Shown here: positions 14,515 to 24,598 of the stretch, one piece after another
Layout: each line of letters begins with the position of its first letter
Position numbering within the stretch: the stretch's first letter is position 1
NCBI GenBank assembly: GCA_039679545.1
Contig: JBDKUT010000133.1
Span: 1 to 24,598, forward strand
DNA: 24,598 bases
DNA from: Thermotogota bacterium
GTDB taxonomy: Bacteria; Bipolaricaulota; Bipolaricaulia; UBA7950; UBA9294
Direction: 5' to 3'
The notes under the pieces: model-generated
The model's input: only the letters and a program-made list of their open reading frames with translations
Databases searched by the model: none
Told to the model about the DNA's origin: nothing
Program-made: the position numbers and the translations under genes

Positions 14515-14589
14515 CGGAGAGTGGCGCAGTCTGGTTAGCGCGCAGCGTTCGGGACGCTGAGGCCGCCGGTTCGAATCCGGCCTCTCCGA
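14515..14589 (+). tRNA. tRNA-Pro (anticodon CGG)
   Basis: Full cloverleaf; acceptor CGGAGAG/CTCTCCG, anticodon arm CAGCG-TTCGGGA-CGCTG, GTTCGAATC; CCA not encoded. Confidence 0.95.
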
Positions 14590-14595
14590 CTTGCC

Positions 14596-14666
14596 GCGGG
14601 AGTAGCTCAATGGTAGAGCGCTGGCCTTCCAAGCCGGTGATGCGGGTTCGATCCCCGTCTCTCGCT
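14596..14666 (+). tRNA. tRNA-Gly (anticodon TCC)
   Basis: GCGGGAG/CTCTCGC acceptor, CTGGC-CTTCCAA-GCCGG, U73 discriminator. Confidence 0.95.
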
Positions 14667-14862
14667 CTGCCGGGTCCGGCGGGATTCGTCCCAGGGCCAC
14701 GGGCGCGCTAGAATCCGGTTCGCTAGTGACGACGGCAGGTTTCCGCCTGTCGATAGCATCGGAATGGAGGAGTTCGAGTAGCGAACTCCCCAGGGAACGG
14801 ATGATGAGACTGCAACTCCGCGTTCAAGCGCGGAACTGCCGAGCGGCACGAAGTGCCGCCAA

Positions 14863-14935
<73 letters not shown>

Positions 14936-14942
14936 CATCCAT

Positions 14943-15019
14943 GGGGAGCGTGGCGCAATGGCTAGCGCACTGGGTTGTGGTCCCAGGGGTTGCGGGTTCG
15001 AGCCCCGTCGCTCCTCCCA
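14943..15019 (+). tRNA. tRNA-His (anticodon GTG)
   Basis: Encoded G-1 and C73, CTGGG-TTGTGGT-CCCAG, CCA encoded. Confidence 0.95.
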
Positions 15020-15113
15020 GAGGGTGGGCATGTAGCATGATGCCCGTCTTGCCTTGGTCCGTGAACCGGGAGTTCGCGGAGCGAACTCCCTAGCTGCGTC
15101 GCAGCGCAGCCCT

Positions 15114-15187
15114 GCGCCCGTAGCTCAACTGGATAGAGCATCGGTCTTCGGAACCGGGGGTTGGGGGTTCAAGTCCCTCCGGGCGTA
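15114..15187 (+). tRNA. tRNA-Arg (anticodon TCG)
   Basis: GCGCCCG/CGGGCGT acceptor, TCGGT-CTTCGGA-ACCGG, GTTCAAGTC. Confidence 0.93.
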
Positions 15188-16735: not shown

Positions 16736-17572
16736 CTAGACCGGGTGGGCTCCGGCCCTTGCCCGTCTCCGCTTCGGCGACGCTACGACTGACAACAGGA
16801 AGATCCCGGCGGCCACGATCGTGATCGCGGCCCCCATGGGCAGGTCGACCATGAGCGACAGGACCGCTCCACCCAGCGAGGCCGCGATACCGAAAGTAGG
16901 TGCGAGGAGAAGCGCCTTCTTGATGTCATACACCCACTGCAACGCGGCCGACGCTGGAAGGATCATCAGCGAGTAGATGAGGAGACCTCCCGTCACCCGC
17001 AGGGATGTGGCAACGACAAGCGCCACCAGGAACAGAAGAGCATAGAACGGTCCGTCCACCGGCAGCCCGCTGGCCAGCGCTAGCTTTCTATCAAGCAGAA
17101 GGGCAAAGAACGGCTTCCAGAAGACTAGCAGGACCGCGACGAACACTCCTGCAACCGCCGCAAGGACGAGGACGTGCGGCATCGTGATGCCAAGAAGGCT
17201 CCCCCACAGGAGACTGAGCGCGCCGTTGCCAATCCCGGAACTGGGAGCGAGGTTGAGGAAGACAAGGCCGAGGGCCATAGTGACGGGGAAAACCACCGCG
17301 AGAATCGTGTCCACGCTCATGCGGGATGCGTCCGCCAGGGGGCCCAAAATTGCTGCGGCGAGAAGCGCCAGGACAAGCGCCATCCAGATCGGGTCAGCCA
17401 CGCCGAGCAGGATGCCAAGCGCGGCCCCCGCGAACGCGGCGTGCGACATGGCGAAGCCGAGTGACGTCAGCTTCATTCGAATCACAAACACGCCAAGAGC
17501 GCTGGACAGGGCGCCGGCAAGGAGGCTCCCCAGGAGGGTCGGCAGGAGGATGTGCCACGGAAGTCCGAACAC
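16736..17572 (-). CDS. Metal ABC transporter permease (ZnuB/ABC-3 family)
   Basis: AMSHAAFAG, LLWGSLL, GGLLIYSLMILPA, DLPMGA; multiple TM helices. Confidence 0.92.
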   Translation of the reverse strand: MFGLPWHILLPTLLGSLLAGALSSALGVFVIRMKLTSLGFAMSHAAFAGAALGILLGVADPIWMALVLALLAAAILGPLADASRMSVDTILAVVFPVTMALGLVFLNLAPSSGIGNGALSLLWGSLLGITMPHVLVLAAVAGVFVAVLLVFWKPFFALLLDRKLALASGLPVDGPFYALLFLVALVVATSLRVTGGLLIYSLMILPASAALQWVYDIKKALLLAPTFGIAASLGGAVLSLMVDLPMGAAITIVAAGIFLLSVVASPKRRRARAGAHPV

Positions 17573-17574
17573 GA

Positions 17575-18276
17575 CTAGCTCATCCCCACGAGAGCCTCGT
17601 CCGCAACCAGTCGTCCGGCGACGATCCTGACCACACGGTCCGCCATCCGCAGCAACGCGCCATCTTCATGGGTCACCACAAGAGCGGTGGCCCCTAGGTC
17701 ACGGCGGACGGCCTGAACTAGCTCGGCGACCTCGATCTTCGACTCCGGGTCCAGGTTCGCCGTTGGTTCGTCGAGAAGGAGGAGAGAGGCATGTTGGGCG
17801 AGGGCGCGTGCCAGGAGAACCTTGCGCTGCTGGCCCCCAGAGAGTCGCCCTACCGGGCGTCCGCCCAAATCACTGATACCGATTGCCACCAGAGCGGACC
17901 TCGCTGCGGAGCGATCGCCCGCAGTCGGCCAGCGCAACCGGCTCGAAAGCCCGAAACGAGCGGCAAGGACGACGTCCGACACAAGGAATGGGGTGTCGGA
18001 GGGAAACATCGCGTCCTGTGGGACATACCCGATTCGGGCCCTCAGTCGGTGGCTTCGACGCGACACGGGCTGCCCGTGAACTTCAACGGCTCCTAAGACG
18101 AACGGCAGCAGGCCGCTCACAACCTCGAGGAGTGTGGTCTTTCCGGCGCCGTTGGGACCGACAACTCCAACCTGCTCTCCCGCTCGAACCTCGAGCGAAA
18201 CGTCGTGAAGCGCTGCGTGCCGTTCTCCTTCGTAAGACGCGGAGACACGACGCAGCGAGACTACGCAATCGTCCAC
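17575..18276 (-). CDS. Metal ABC transporter ATPase (ZnuC-like)
   Basis: GPNGAGKTT, YVPQ, LSGGQ, LLLLDEPT, VVTH. Start set at GTG 18276, overlapping the fmdE end, rather than 18495. Confidence 0.9.
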   Translation of the reverse strand: MDDCVVSLRRVSASYEGERHAALHDVSLEVRAGEQVGVVGPNGAGKTTLLEVVSGLLPFVLGAVEVHGQPVSRRSHRLRARIGYVPQDAMFPSDTPFLVSDVVLAARFGLSSRLRWPTAGDRSAARSALVAIGISDLGGRPVGRLSGGQQRKVLLARALAQHASLLLLDEPTANLDPESKIEVAELVQAVRRDLGATALVVTHEDGALLRMADRVVRIVAGRLVADEALVGMS

Positions 18277-18692
18277 TCGAACAGCTCCTCGGAAGGGCGG
18301 TGTCGCAGCGTCGTGCCGAACTCGTCGACCTGGCCGCCGCGGATCTCGGCGAGGATCTCGCGCCGAAGCTCGATCGTGGCAGACCTGCCACTCTCTGTCG
18401 TGAATCGCACACACGGGCGAGTACGCGCGGCGACGATGAGGTTCCCCTTCCCCGTTGTACAGCCGGCACCAATCTGTATGCCGTCGTTCAGGCAAGACAG
18501 CGGGGGAGTCCAGCCAGCTTCGGAATGTGCTTCAAGACCGAAGTAACCGGGGTGCTCGAGCAGTTCGAGAGCCAGGAGCCCCATGCGAATCCCGACCACG
18601 AGGAACGGCCCAAAGTGGCCGTGGAGCAGGGCACCCCGCTCCACGGTCGCATCGATGTCGATCGATCGCGGATCGATCGTGAGGCACTTCAA
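18261..18692 (-). CDS. FmdE/FwdE-family protein
   Basis: HGHFGPFLVVGIRMG, CLNDGIQ...GCTTGKGNL. Confidence 0.88.
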   Translation of the reverse strand: MKCLTIDPRSIDIDATVERGALLHGHFGPFLVVGIRMGLLALELLEHPGYFGLEAHSEAGWTPPLSCLNDGIQIGAGCTTGKGNLIVAARTRPCVRFTTESGRSATIELRREILAEIRGGQVDEFGTTLRHRPSEELFEWTIA

Positions 18693-19504
18693 GGCGTTCC
18701 TCCCACCGGGAGCTGAAGGGCTGCAAAGAGCGCCGAGGCATTGGCCGCCAGGAGCTCCGGCACGGTCGCCGTATTCGGCATGGCGCCCGGGAAATTGGAG
18801 AGAACGACGTGCACGGCCGCGACCTCGTGCGCCAGCTTCGCTCCGAAGTCCAGGCCGGATTGGAGGTTGTCAATGACCATCTGGGCGCCTGCCTCACGCC
18901 CTGTCGCAGTAAGCGAGACGAGATCCGAGAGTGAAAGGGTTTCCGGCTTCCCGTAGGTCGCGACAACGTGGAAGCCAAGCCAAGTAACGAAGCTCTCCTG
19001 CCACGCCATGCACACCACGGGGACAGATCCGGCGGCATGTGCTGAGGCCTGCGCATGAAGATCGCTTGCGAGCGCTTCCAGTTGAGCGATGTACGCGGCG
19101 GCGTTTGACGCTAGTTTCTCCCTCTGATCGGGAAGGAGATCCTCGAGCGCTGTCTCCACCGCCTGAACCTTAGCGATCGCAGCGTCGGGGGTGTTCCACG
19201 TGCCGGGCAGTTGGATGACCTTTGCGGTGCTTGCCGTGGCCGTGGCGAGCGTGCCAATCCATGACTCGAAGCCGGAGTAGAAGATGATCGAGGCTCCTAC
19301 TACAGCGCGAACATCACTAGGAGCGAGGTCGTAGTGGTCGGGGCAGAAGCCGGATGGGATGATGGTGATCACATTCACCAGGTCGCCTCCGACGACGCGT
19401 GCGAACTCGCCGTACACAGCATGGGTGGCAACGACAGTCGGGACTGCCCCGGTGACGAGCGAGAGAGCTGTGACGATGATGAGTGCCGTGACGATCCGTT
19501 TCAT
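18689..19504 (-). CDS. Metal ABC transporter substrate-binding protein (ZnuA/TroA-like)
   Basis: Signal peptide, VVAT, VGGD.V.V..IIP.G..P.HYDL.PSD, GFESW, NAAAY...L..L. Confidence 0.85.
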   Translation of the reverse strand: MKRIVTALIIVTALSLVTGAVPTVVATHAVYGEFARVVGGDLVNVITIIPSGFCPDHYDLAPSDVRAVVGASIIFYSGFESWIGTLATATASTAKVIQLPGTWNTPDAAIAKVQAVETALEDLLPDQREKLASNAAAYIAQLEALASDLHAQASAHAAGSVPVVCMAWQESFVTWLGFHVVATYGKPETLSLSDLVSLTATGREAGAQMVIDNLQSGLDFGAKLAHEVAAVHVVLSNFPGAMPNTATVPELLAANASALFAALQLPVGGTP

Positions 19505-19518
19505 GATGGGTCTCCTTT

Positions 19519-19932
19519 CTAGCGAAGCTTCTTTCCAGTGGAGGTGGCCGTGAGCGCACCGTGCTTGACGCCCTTGAGACTGGTCATTTGGTCTGCCAGC
19601 TTCTGGATCGCTTGGGCCTCGCCCTTCACGGCGACGAACTCAAGGCAGTTGTCGGCGTCGACGTGAACGTGCGTTGCAGAGATAACCTCCGCAAGTGCGT
19701 GGTGCTGTATCTCAGTCAGTGCTTCGGAGACGCCATGCCGATGATGGTCGTACAGGAGCGTGATGACTCCGGCCACCTCGTCGTCCCGCTCCCACTCCTG
19801 TCGCACCAACTGGGAGCGCATCGCGTCCCGTAGGGCTTCGGAGCGGTTCGTGTAGCCCCGTGCATGAGCTAGCGCAGCGAACGCATCAACCAGCTCCTTG
19901 TCGATCGATACGCTGAACCGAACGAGTGGCAT
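19519..19932 (-). CDS. nikR: Nickel-responsive regulator NikR
   Basis: RFSVSI, YTNRSEALRD, YDHH, HVHVDADNCLE (HxH...C Ni site), KGVKHG. Confidence 0.95.
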   Translation of the reverse strand: MPLVRFSVSIDKELVDAFAALAHARGYTNRSEALRDAMRSQLVRQEWERDDEVAGVITLLYDHHRHGVSEALTEIQHHALAEVISATHVHVDADNCLEFVAVKGEAQAIQKLADQMTSLKGVKHGALTATSTGKKLR

Positions 19933-21872: not shown

Positions 21873-22072
21873 GGCGTTTCTGGTTCCCGTTTCGTCCGTG
21901 AGGGGCGCTTCGATCCTGCGGATCAGTGTACCGAACCTCGTGCTCGATTCCAGTGAGATAGACGGCGCGGCCGTCGTGGCCGTCCGGCAGTTGAGCGAAG
22001 CGTTGTTCCGACTCGGCGGTCGGAGTACAGTGCTGTCGGCTTCGCGGGGTGAAGCGTACTAGGAGGGCAAGG

Positions 22073-22924
22073 ATGCCGAAACGCGCGGGAGTGGCTTTCG
22101 CCCTCGTCCTGCTTGCGGGGATTGGGCTTTACGGGCAAGACTGCTCGACGCAATCGTACTTGGTCACGCGTGGAACCGCGGAAGCGGCCCAAGGCGCCAT
22201 CGTGCAGACAATCGACGGCGCCACGCGCTCTCTGGACGTTGCCGTGTCCAGCTTCGCAGACGGCGCGATCGGCGACGCGGTGGTTCGAGCTGGCCAGCGT
22301 GGGGTCTCGGTGCGCGTGATTCTCTCGGTGTCCGTTCGAACGGAGGTCAGCGGGCAGTACGCGAAGCTGGTGGCTGCAGGTGTGCCACTGAAGCTTGTGC
22401 CCGCGTCGACACCGTTCTCGTATCGCTTCGCCGTGATCGACAGAGCGACCGTTGTTGGGGGAAGCTACGAGTGGGCAAGAGGCACGGACCAAGCGACGTA
22501 TGGGACTCTTACGGTGATCCGGTGCGGGTCCGTAACCTCTGGGCGTTCCAAGGCCGAGGAATACGCCGCGGACTTCTCTCGGCTCTGGGACTCGCTCCCC
22601 GGCGTACAGGCGGCGATCAAGCCGGCCGGGGCGGCGCCGATTTCGATGCTGGTCGCCATCCAGGAGGTCGATACCGACCAGCAGTGCGTTCTCCTGTTCA
22701 ATCGAGACACGGCCGCCGCAGATCTCAGCGGTTGGATCGTCACCGATTCCGAAGGGCGGTATGTGTTCCCGCAAGGGTTCGAGCTCGCTCCCGGCGAGCT
22801 GTATCACCTGTGCATCGGTGAGCTCAACCCGGTTGACGTCTTTCTCTTCTACCTCGATCCTGAGCACGACGAGCTCTACCTGATTGCGCCCGACGGAACG
22901 CTCGTCGACCAGATCGTGTGGTAG
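22073..22924 (+). CDS. Secreted PLD/Nuc-fold protein with degenerate HKD motif and C-terminal lamin-tail-like domain
   Basis: AGGAGG SD, signal peptide, IDGATRSLDVA, A.QRGVSVRVI, SYRFAVID...GSYEW, and LFN....DLSGW.VTD....YVFP....LAPGE. Confidence 0.8.
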   Translation: MPKRAGVAFALVLLAGIGLYGQDCSTQSYLVTRGTAEAAQGAIVQTIDGATRSLDVAVSSFADGAIGDAVVRAGQRGVSVRVILSVSVRTEVSGQYAKLVAAGVPLKLVPASTPFSYRFAVIDRATVVGGSYEWARGTDQATYGTLTVIRCGSVTSGRSKAEEYAADFSRLWDSLPGVQAAIKPAGAAPISMLVAIQEVDTDQQCVLLFNRDTAAADLSGWIVTDSEGRYVFPQGFELAPGELYHLCIGELNPVDVFLFYLDPEHDELYLIAPDGTLVDQIVW

Positions 22925-23022: not shown

Positions 23023-23052
23023 TTGACTTCCAGGCAGCAAAGCGGGTAGCCT
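23023..23052 (+). promoter_or_regulatory. sigma70-type promoter upstream of the riboswitch
   Basis: TTGACT-18bp-TAGCCT; the predicted start falls a few nt before P1. Confidence 0.55.
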
Positions 23053-23064
23053 ACCAAAGTTCAA

Positions 23065-23147
23065 GGTGCTCGAAAACGCAAAACCGCCGGAAGGCGGTGA
23101 CGCAAAGCCACGGGGCCTGAGGAGGTTAGCCGAGCTGCCGAAGCGCC
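23065..23147 (+). ncRNA. c-di-GMP-I (GEMM-I)-fold riboswitch aptamer, variant
   Basis: P1 GGTGCTCG/CGAAGCGCC; GCAAA-ACCGCC-GGAA-GGCGGT-GACGCAAAGCC; P3 CGGGGCCT...AGGTTAGCCG; 3' GCTGCCGA. Confidence 0.88.
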
Positions 23148-23203
23148 AAGTCTGGTGTGGAGAGGCGCGACAACATGCAAGGACAGTGTGGCTACGCTGT
23201 GAT

Positions 23204-23232
23204 GCGGTCCGTTCGCGGGCCGTTTTTTCTTT
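23204..23232 (+). terminator. Intrinsic terminator, probable riboswitch expression platform
   Basis: GCGGTCCG-TTCG-CGGGCCGT followed by TTTTTCTTT. Confidence 0.75.
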
Positions 23233-23467
23233 GGGACTGCCCATAGGAACAAGGAGGATGGGAGTTCGGTAGAGCGACACAACCCGACCTGAGAGACAAG
23301 ACGAAGGGAGCCTAGCGATTCGCCCAAGTTGTCCCGTGCCCACGGAACCGCTCTGCTCCTCTCTAGTGCTCCCTCGCCTTTCCTCTTAGTCTAGCCGAGC
23401 TTCTTGGTGCAGTCAGGGGACCGCCGCGGCGGCGAGCGGGGACAGAGGTTCGTGGGCGGAGGGGTGG

Positions 23468-24598
23468 ATGGCTAGGGAGACGCGGAGTGTGAGACAAAGC
23501 GGCGCGGGGGCAGTCGAGCCCGCACGGGGAAAACCCCAGCCGGGCGAACGCTGTCGGCTGGTGTTCCTGGCAATCGCTGCGATGATCTTCGTCGTGGCCA
23601 ACTGGACGGCGTTTGGCGGAGTCCTATCGGGGCAGTTCGGACTGGAAGTTGGGGTTCGCAGGATCCCCTCTACGCTGACCGGCGACATCGTGCTCGATAC
23701 CCCTACGGAGTACGCCGAACTCGAATTCGCCATGGCCTCCGACCTCAACGTGAGGGTCGACGGCGGCTTCGCCAACATGCTCATCGATGCGGTCGTCAAC
23801 ATGGCTGGGCCGGAGCACGCGGTCTTGATGGGCGATCTTCCCATCGAAGACCTGACGCTTTACGGATTCGTAATCGACAAGCTGCGCTTCGTACCTGAGG
23901 TGTGGTTCGCCATTCCCTTCGGATCCGTCACCGACGTCAACAACCTCGCGAACTCAACCGTGATCCCGCCCGGCGGCGCGCTCTTCGTGACGGGTCGTGT
24001 CTCGACGACGTGCACGATCGGCGGGTTCACCGTGAAGCACGTGGCGATGCTCCAGGACGTCAATTTCCCGAAGCCGAGCGAGACGTATACCCCGCCAAAC
24101 ACGTACCAGGCCTCGGACCAAGACTTCGCCCTGGGTAGCCTTCTCTACGTCTCGTGGCGGTCGCAGTTTGGGTATTCCGCGCGCGCAACGCTCGGCGTGA
24201 ACGCCAGCCAAGCGAGCACGAGCGTCAAGGGATACTCGGCGGTCGGCACCGTGGATCCGGGCAACTGGTTCGCTTCCGGTTCCATCAGCGGAATCGACCT
24301 GGACGTCCTCGCGGGAGCGTCCGGCTGGCTGACCGACGCGCAGATCGGGGCCGGATTCGTGGTCTCGACGACGCAGACGATGTCCGGCTCCGTCGACTTC
24401 TCGGCGCGCCTCCCGGGAGGGATGGGCGTCGGCGCGTCCCTCGGGCTGTTCGCCAACGCCGGTTCGTTCAGCGGGATCAGCGTTTCGGGAGGAGTCGGCT
24501 GCTTCCACTTCGCCGCGATACTCGATCAGTTGGAACTTACGTCGTTGTCTGCGCGCTTCAACCAGTCCCTCAACCTCGGCGTGATGAAGGGCGCGTTC
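23468..24598 (+). CDS. Large exported beta-strand-rich hypothetical protein (3' end outside window)
   Basis: Absent from the ORF track because there is no stop in the window. GGAGG SD + ATG 23468, open for 377 codons: MARETRS...LVFLAIAAMIFVVANWTAFG/GVLSGQFGLEV...; alternating amphipathic strands. Confidence 0.8.
   Translation, partial: MARETRSVRQSGAGAVEPARGKPQPGERCRLVFLAIAAMIFVVANWTAFGGVLSGQFGLEVGVRRIPSTLTGDIVLDTPTEYAELEFAMASDLNVRVDGGFANMLIDAVVNMAGPEHAVLMGDLPIEDLTLYGFVIDKLRFVPEVWFAIPFGSVTDVNNLANSTVIPPGGALFVTGRVSTTCTIGGFTVKHVAMLQDVNFPKPSETYTPPNTYQASDQDFALGSLLYVSWRSQFGYSARATLGVNASQASTSVKGYSAVGTVDPGNWFASGSISGIDLDVLAGASGWLTDAQIGAGFVVSTTQTMSGSVDFSARLPGGMGVGASLGLFANAGSFSGISVSGGVGCFHFAAILDQLELTSLSARFNQSLNLGVMKGAF

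Follow-up and report, generated by a model that had tools for sequence, protein, structure and literature searches.

The window, that is, the whole stretch of 24,598 nucleotides analysed here, carries a c-di-GMP-I (GEMM-I) aptamer near its 3' end, at 23066..23146 of the forward strand. An intrinsic terminator (23204-23232) and a same-strand ORF beginning at 23468 follow, which places the aptamer in a 5' leader. The ORF (23468..24598, forward strand) has a signal-peptide-like N-terminus and runs off the end of the contig; it is the inferred regulated gene. The gene on the upstream side, at 22049-22924, has a signal-peptide-like start with PLD-like and lamin-tail domains. Elsewhere in the window, five tRNA genes are clustered at 14515-15187, and the reverse strand at 16736-19932 holds what we take, by eye from the translations, to be a NikR-like regulator with a metal ABC transporter set and an FmdE-like ORF behind it.

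The whole locus was sought by DNA search of 61 genomes and was present in two genomes of the same genus, referred to as G005 (80% identity) and G001 (75%). A highly conserved leader segment (23250..23370, forward strand) lies between the terminator and the start codon, with 115/121 positions (95%) identical in G005 and 109/121 (90%) in G001; it is more conserved than the aptamer (85% and 89%, respectively) or the first downstream codons (78% and 70%). The leader includes a short palindrome (23334-23345) and, at ~23255-23273, a 4-codon frame directly after a Shine-Dalgarno-like run. The segment returned no Rfam match at cut-off and has no second copy in the genome, and the consensus fold of 23236-23470 drew no covariation support from the three sequences. 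It is possibly a second promoter, a protein-binding site or an RNA element.

For the product of 23468-24598 we predict an outer-membrane beta-barrel, and it belongs to a family found throughout the lineage, with homologues in 38/121 genomes of the class. In the closed homologues the C-terminus is an alternating strand whose last residue is F or another hydrophobic one. A structural model built for the G001 orthologue is all-beta (pLDDT 78, pTM 0.65); the best fold matches to it are porins and ushers, whose TM values are low (0.2-0.5). Searches with the downstream protein gave no Pfam family above cut-off, no PDB sequence match, no longer homologues and no Atlas feature match reaching 0.9. Members of the family (L366-L396) are ~430-570 amino acids long, and a single genome has up to 6 matches. 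The start of contig C100 carries the 3' part of the 23468 gene or of a close homologue, without an exact overlap.

The aptamer and its position 20

A cmscan of the whole window matched RF01051 (c-di-GMP-I) at 23067-23142 of the forward strand with 60.4 bits (E 9.5e-10) against a cut-off of 35, and the alignment is full length, covering 87/87 model positions. On the aptamer map, P1 is formed by 23066-23072 with 23139-23146, where A95 (23141) is bulged; P2 spans 23078-23103 with a GNRA loop at 23089-23092, and P3 spans 23107-23137, all on the forward strand. Vc2-numbered positions were mapped by hand, most of them taken from the conserved and tertiary contacts given in the accessible portion of PMC3764141, and 20/21 carry the canonical base (G14, G21, C22, A23, A25, G32, A35, G42, C44, G45, C46, A47, A48, A49, C59, G79, G83, C92, C93 and A95). 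The P1/P2/P3 junction, the GNRA tetraloop, the receptor pair C59-G79 and C44-G83 are all present at the level of sequence, and identity to the G005 and G001 copies further supports the assignment. Both the RF01051 alignment and the position map place A23104 at A47, which stacks between the ligand bases, and C23138 at C92, the Watson-Crick partner of the ligand's second G (both forward strand), so that these two ligand contacts are kept. The sole exception among the mapped positions is C23077 (forward strand), which falls on the first G of the GGC in RF01051, that is, on the column of the ligand-contacting G20 of Vc2. The first-pass annotation had proposed both an intact c-di-GMP-I fold and a C-A-C triad in its pocket, and both proposals hold.

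The canonical G-A-C pocket is absent, with C23077 where G20 is expected, and we file the aptamer as a pocket variant of the c-di-GMP-I family rather than as a canonical member on the basis of these alignments. With Vc2 and RF01051 it shares the three-way junction, the tetraloop and its receptor C59-G79, C44-G83, A47-A49, C92, the G14-C93 pair with bulged A95, a score over the family cut-off and a place upstream of an envelope-protein gene; it differs in having C20 instead of G20, a 5-nt J1/2 and a terminator-type platform. The Rfam variant models c-di-GMP-I-GGC and c-di-GMP-I-UAU share the scaffold and take their names from the three pocket bases; the triad here is C-A-C. GEMM-Ib has A20, where this aptamer has C23077. 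The c-di-GMP-I-GGC model (RF03167) scored 57.0, below its cut-off of 59, and needs G47 where A23104 stands. The c-di-GMP-I-UAU variant is defined by U at positions 20 and 92, occupied here by C23077 and C23138. No C-A-C model appeared among the Rfam scan results. Six further aptamers in the same genome have G20 in 6/6 cases.

C23077 is not an assembly error. It was checked in the contigs of eight sequencing runs: contigs from X1 and X2 (possibly the source study) and from X3 and X4 (two other studies) cross 23077 with 0 differences, and X5-X8 gave no contig of this locus over that position. The first-pass annotation had named sequencing error as a ground for dismissal, and the same C in contigs from three studies disposes of it. 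Contig depths are 4-7, with about 4 in each of X3 and X4. In X4 there is, in addition, a divergent copy with a loose end that agrees with the G001 allele. The other technical concern was that an alignment might place another base at position 20. RF01051 puts C there, as claimed, and RF03167 puts a gap there, the J1/2 junction being 5 nt. On the RF03167 alignment, C20 could be read as a deletion of G20 from a 6-nt junction; this was ruled out, as the junction is likewise 5 nt long in both orthologues and has G at this site, which makes the change a substitution. An artefact of sequencing, assembly or alignment would be suggested by that gap and by depths of just 4-7. We regard it as almost certainly not the explanation, given the identical base across three studies and the equal junction length, with G, in the orthologues.

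Promoter, terminator and predicted switching

A candidate sigma-70-type promoter is inferred at 23023..23052 of the forward strand, with a -35 box at 23023-23028, an 18-nt spacer and a -10 box at 23047-23052. It has 8/12 consensus matches, which is under the threshold of the promoter scanner (0 promoters reported); both boxes have counterparts in G001 and G005, identical for -35 and similar for -10. The terminator (23204..23232, forward strand) has an 8-bp stem, a UUCG loop and a U tract and begins 57 nt past P1. It was found by a terminator scan that returned 3 sites against 1.0 expected by chance, and its stem and U-rich tail are kept, with base changes, in G001 and G005. Of the flanking elements described in the first-pass annotation, the terminator is accordingly upheld by scan and orthologues, and the promoter keeps its candidate status, its boxes being conserved and the scanner having missed it.

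Unconstrained minimum free energy folding predicts a ligand-free alternative at 23137..23166 (forward strand), in which a hairpin at 23143-23158 takes the 3' strand of P1, and 23137-23139 pair with 23164-23166 and hide C92 and C93. A corresponding hairpin occurs in the unconstrained folds of 3/3 orthologues. The 181-nt region folds no better than its shuffles (z -0.21). In the mechanism that we propose, the P1 3' strand and C92/C93 would be drawn into the alternative hairpin (23137-23166) without ligand. Binding of c-di-GMP, in which C92 would pair with one G of the ligand and A47 would stack between its two bases, would lock P1, and locked P1 would alter formation of the terminator at 23204-23232 during transcription. 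Constrained folding of the present allele gave a terminator probability of ~0.8-1.0 whether or not P1 was locked; in G001 the value fell from 0.9 to 0.26 with P1 locked, an ON-like response, and a truncated G005 transcript went in the opposite direction. Since all three orthologues have the terminator in their ligand-free folds, the folding models lean slightly towards an ON switch.

The lack of a ligand-dependent change in the terminator probability of the present allele would also suit a weakened or decaying switch, whose affinity lies beyond the physiological range and whose gene is in effect locked in the ligand-free state or else expressed from the conserved leader beyond the terminator; the segment at 23250-23370 could carry such separate control signals. 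We consider decay unlikely, for reasons that emerge from the comparison with other genomes and from the pocket itself.

C20 in relatives and across bacteria

At position 20, both sister-species orthologues (G001 and G005) have G, before the same gene. Identity in the upstream gene is 93% with G005 and 83% with G001, and this closer relationship to G005 implies, by parsimony, that the G-to-C change postdates the split from the nearer relative; on these comparisons the change is recent. Having C20 in 1/3 of the genomes with the locus is compatible with decay, and with C20 at the locus confined to one species a mildly harmful and a neutral change would look alike. The aptamer is nevertheless intact in all other respects: P2 has a U-A type pair at its base, where G005 has a mismatch, and positions 23-25 have the consensus AAA here and AGA in both orthologues.

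Among distant relatives, 28 loci where the downstream gene has a homologue were fetched and 18 scanned, and an aptamer was found at 6. One match, on the opposite strand, was dropped; the remaining 5/5 same-strand aptamers, which precede homologous genes in other genera and are possibly not strict orthologues of the present one, all have G20. That a same-strand aptamer occurs at just 5/18 of these loci is again compatible with decay. The first-pass annotation had named a singleton C20 as a ground for dismissal and had asked whether C20 is conserved among homologues. At this locus, which three genomes hold, C20 is a singleton and is not conserved, with G20 in G001, G005 and the 5/5 distant aptamers; across bacteria it is not a singleton and recurs at other loci.

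A fixed pattern applied to 184 genomes of the class found 497 matches, with G at position 20 in 472, A in 17, C in 8 (1.6%) and U in 0; this pattern misses other stem lengths and a pyrimidine at position 19. The C20 matches lie in 7 genomes, including the present one. Because C20 occurs 8 times and U20 never among these matches, the counts suggest that C is better tolerated than U, which runs counter to decay. The A20 aptamers of the class, which are GEMM-Ib-like (17, L116-L132), are spread over 15 genomes, 5 of these in genus g4, and a class relative, G041, has 27 c-di-GMP-I matches in 3.7 Mb.

A stricter pattern, applied to GTDB genomes, gave 41 further C20 loci in Chloroflexota, Bacillota, Elusimicrobia, Myxococcota, Actinomycetota and other groups, several of them in clusters of related genomes. 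Recurrence in related genomes of other lineages likewise speaks against decay. A metagenome scan yielded 121 fetched C20 loci, from an estimated ~650 stored stretches, and 105 distinct aptamers (L170-L290) passed a pairing filter. C92 is kept in 81/101 of those with a readable 3' side, as judged with a rough template. Position 19 is a pyrimidine in 50/105, and G19 is present in 3/105, as against 43/92 G20 aptamers from class loci, an uncontrolled comparison between different collections. The scarcity of G19 may reflect a register or stacking constraint. Viral contigs contained no C20 in 76 matches (72 G, 4 A).

The recurrence of C20 over many phyla, and the hint of a co-varying pocket in the G19 counts, could be taken to mean that C-A-C aptamers are a class apart, sensing a different cyclic dinucleotide that contains one G (such as G-pyrimidine or G-inosine) and is made by an unrecognised enzyme. 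We find this very improbable. The gene context is not distinct: behind the 41 GTDB loci 37 ORFs were called and 27 scanned, giving 6 S8 peptidases, 2 CAP, 1 GGDEF, 1 MCP, 1 HAMP and 1 PAS protein, 6 from other families and 9 familyless. These genes are of the usual GEMM sort and none stands out as a sign of a distinct regulon. Moreover, C92 is retained in most C20 aptamers at the count given above, the same genes are preceded by G20 in some genomes and by C20 in others, and no candidate synthase was found.

Smith et al. reportedly measured position-20 mutants in 2010 and noted natural variation. As a natural variant the C-A-C triad is a minor one, with neither an Rfam model in our scans nor a description in the open-access literature searched. 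That literature yielded no natural C20 aptamer, and cases under another numbering (like Cd1 G11C, discussed below) could escape such a search; C20 is not mentioned in the accessible sections of PMC5888326, PMC8835794, PMC6200980, PMC7266159 and PMC11218506. Taken over all the genomes compared, C20 marks a genuine variant of the pocket in a known riboswitch class, one that arose recently at this locus and recurs elsewhere.

Ligand and pocket chemistry

The genome encodes the enzymes of c-di-GMP metabolism, with 9 GGDEF domains, 8 of them intact, and 8 HD_5 (HD-GYP-type) domains. According to the part of PMC6456294 available to us, Hypr GGDEF domains are defined by Ser at a position that is Asp in 8/8 of the intact domains here, so that the Ser type is found in 0/8. 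Searches with DAC, SMODS, NF041078 and NF041117 gave no match in the 93.6% complete genome, the NF041078 search being a weak one in that no control genome matched either; at this completeness a synthase could be absent from the assembly. Asp is likewise present in all GGDEF domains that could be read in five other genomes with C20, namely 21/25 domains in G032, G151 and G158 (4 degenerate), 20/20 in a Paenibacillus genome and 6/9 matches in an Elusimicrobia genome; the domains not counted as Asp are degenerate, partial or unread. From these profile searches, c-di-GMP appears to be the only cyclic dinucleotide with a synthase in the present genome, and the different cyclic dinucleotide envisaged in the first-pass annotation finds no enzyme in the survey.

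G20 recognises one ligand G at its Hoogsteen edge and the second G pairs with C92, as described in the accessible text of PMC6140456, and G20 and C92 are said in an excerpt of PMC9049102 to be conserved less than A47. Published mutants at this position diverge. The passages seen of PMC4744006 cite a 30,000-fold drop in binding on mutation of G20 in Vc2, and report binding by G20U Vc2 as lost in dialysis and by Vc1 G12U as partially lost; these losses indicate that a pyrimidine at position 20 can be costly, which favours decay. Conversely, the portion of PMC9262584 consulted reports that Cd1 G11C and G11A, altered at the G20 equivalent, keep c-di-GMP binding by NMR with no large effect, a qualitative result obtained at high RNA concentration with an aptamer that lacks a canonical P1. 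Cd1 G11C, from Clostridioides difficile, has the same G-to-C change as the present aptamer; it is engineered, whereas the present aptamer is natural with a 7-bp P1. Binding by this mutant argues against decay and against a separate class alike.

The reading that we consider probable, from the sequence comparisons, is a class I c-di-GMP riboswitch or attenuator in which G20 has become C, which would still sense c-di-GMP, probably with lower affinity, and would control termination before the beta-barrel gene. That c-di-GMP is still the ligand is suggested by the retained C92, which requires one of the two ligand bases to be a G, and by the c-di-GMP binding of Cd1 G11C. A retuned sensor is favoured by G20 in the orthologues and in the 5/5 aptamers at homologue loci, and a different cyclic dinucleotide is left unsupported by searches that found no synthase for one. 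The first-pass annotation had offered two meanings for C20: a weakened or retuned c-di-GMP sensor, which fits, and a receptor for another cyclic dinucleotide, against which stand the G20 orthologues, the negative synthase searches and the Cd1 mutant.

C20 would have the donor/acceptor pattern of A20, an amino group and a ring nitrogen, on a base that is shorter. In the accessible text of PMC6140456, A20 aptamers bind cGAMP, and often c-di-GMP too, through a protonated A20; by analogy, C20 may contact the Hoogsteen edge of the other G via its amino group and possibly a protonated N3. A smaller base with the A20 pattern implies a looser hold on the ligand G, which would raise the switching threshold and weaken discrimination against 3',3'-cGAMP in vitro; the same analogy makes a looser selectivity likely. 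If the probable reading is right, the locus exemplifies one-base affinity tuning, possibly via a protonated cytosine, which is a modest result.

The shared pattern also raises a bolder option, that C20 mimics A20 and that the aptamer is a 3',3'-cGAMP sensor, or a dual c-di-GMP/cGAMP sensor, of relevance in the cell. C and A share a Watson-Crick donor/acceptor pattern, as we infer. Some C20 hosts belong to Desulfuromonadales and Polyangia, groups that have Hypr enzymes. In GEMM-Ib (A20; Geobacter Gs1761) the scaffold, A47, C92 and a non-G base with an amino donor and a ring-nitrogen acceptor are the same as here; the present aptamer differs in having C20, no Hypr GGDEF found and G20 in its orthologues. 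Binding of cGAMP by the often bispecific A20 aptamers (PMC6140456, as far as accessible) and the description of the G20-equivalent position by the authors of PMC9262584, in the section available, as a selectivity factor rather than a hard filter add to its appeal. With no Ser-type GGDEF here or among the readable domains of the five other C20 genomes, no CD-NTase match in the present genome and G20 in the orthologous switches, we think it rather improbable that cGAMP matters to this switch.

cGAMP riboswitches were found through GEMM-I pocket variants, and each recurring triad deserves a test for that reason. The broader proposition, that C-A-C is an undescribed, repeatedly evolved GEMM-I specificity variant found in many phyla, in which C20 reads cGAMP or another G-containing cyclic dinucleotide in hosts without a recognised enzyme, strikes us as decidedly doubtful; if true, it would point to an unknown cyclic-dinucleotide synthase. 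Any difference in ligand would be important, though the evidence points away from it and a new ligand for the C20 aptamer is unlikely. For the retuned c-di-GMP sensor, the locus offers a clean natural pair, C20 versus G20 in two sister species, in aptamers 85-89% identical and before the same gene.

A second locus bears on the same reading. Seven of the 8 class C20 matches lie at a tandem switch, in its second aptamer. Across the 12 copies of this second aptamer in the family, C20 and G20 each occur 6 times, C20 in genus g12 (5 genomes, across which it is kept) and once in g3, and G20 in genera g1, g3, g5 and g14, so that g3 has both states. A small secreted-type protein family lies downstream in 11/12 copies. 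The alternation of C20 and G20 before the same protein family favours a retuned c-di-GMP sensor, and the retention of C20 across g12 is difficult to square with decay. From these copies, the tandem locus is a better conserved test case for C20 than the present locus. In the present genome and genus its second aptamer has G20; the tandem c-di-GMP-I riboswitch of the present genome is at G000:C15:47619-47777 and precedes a secreted-type protein of ~155 amino acids, with copies at L158-L169.
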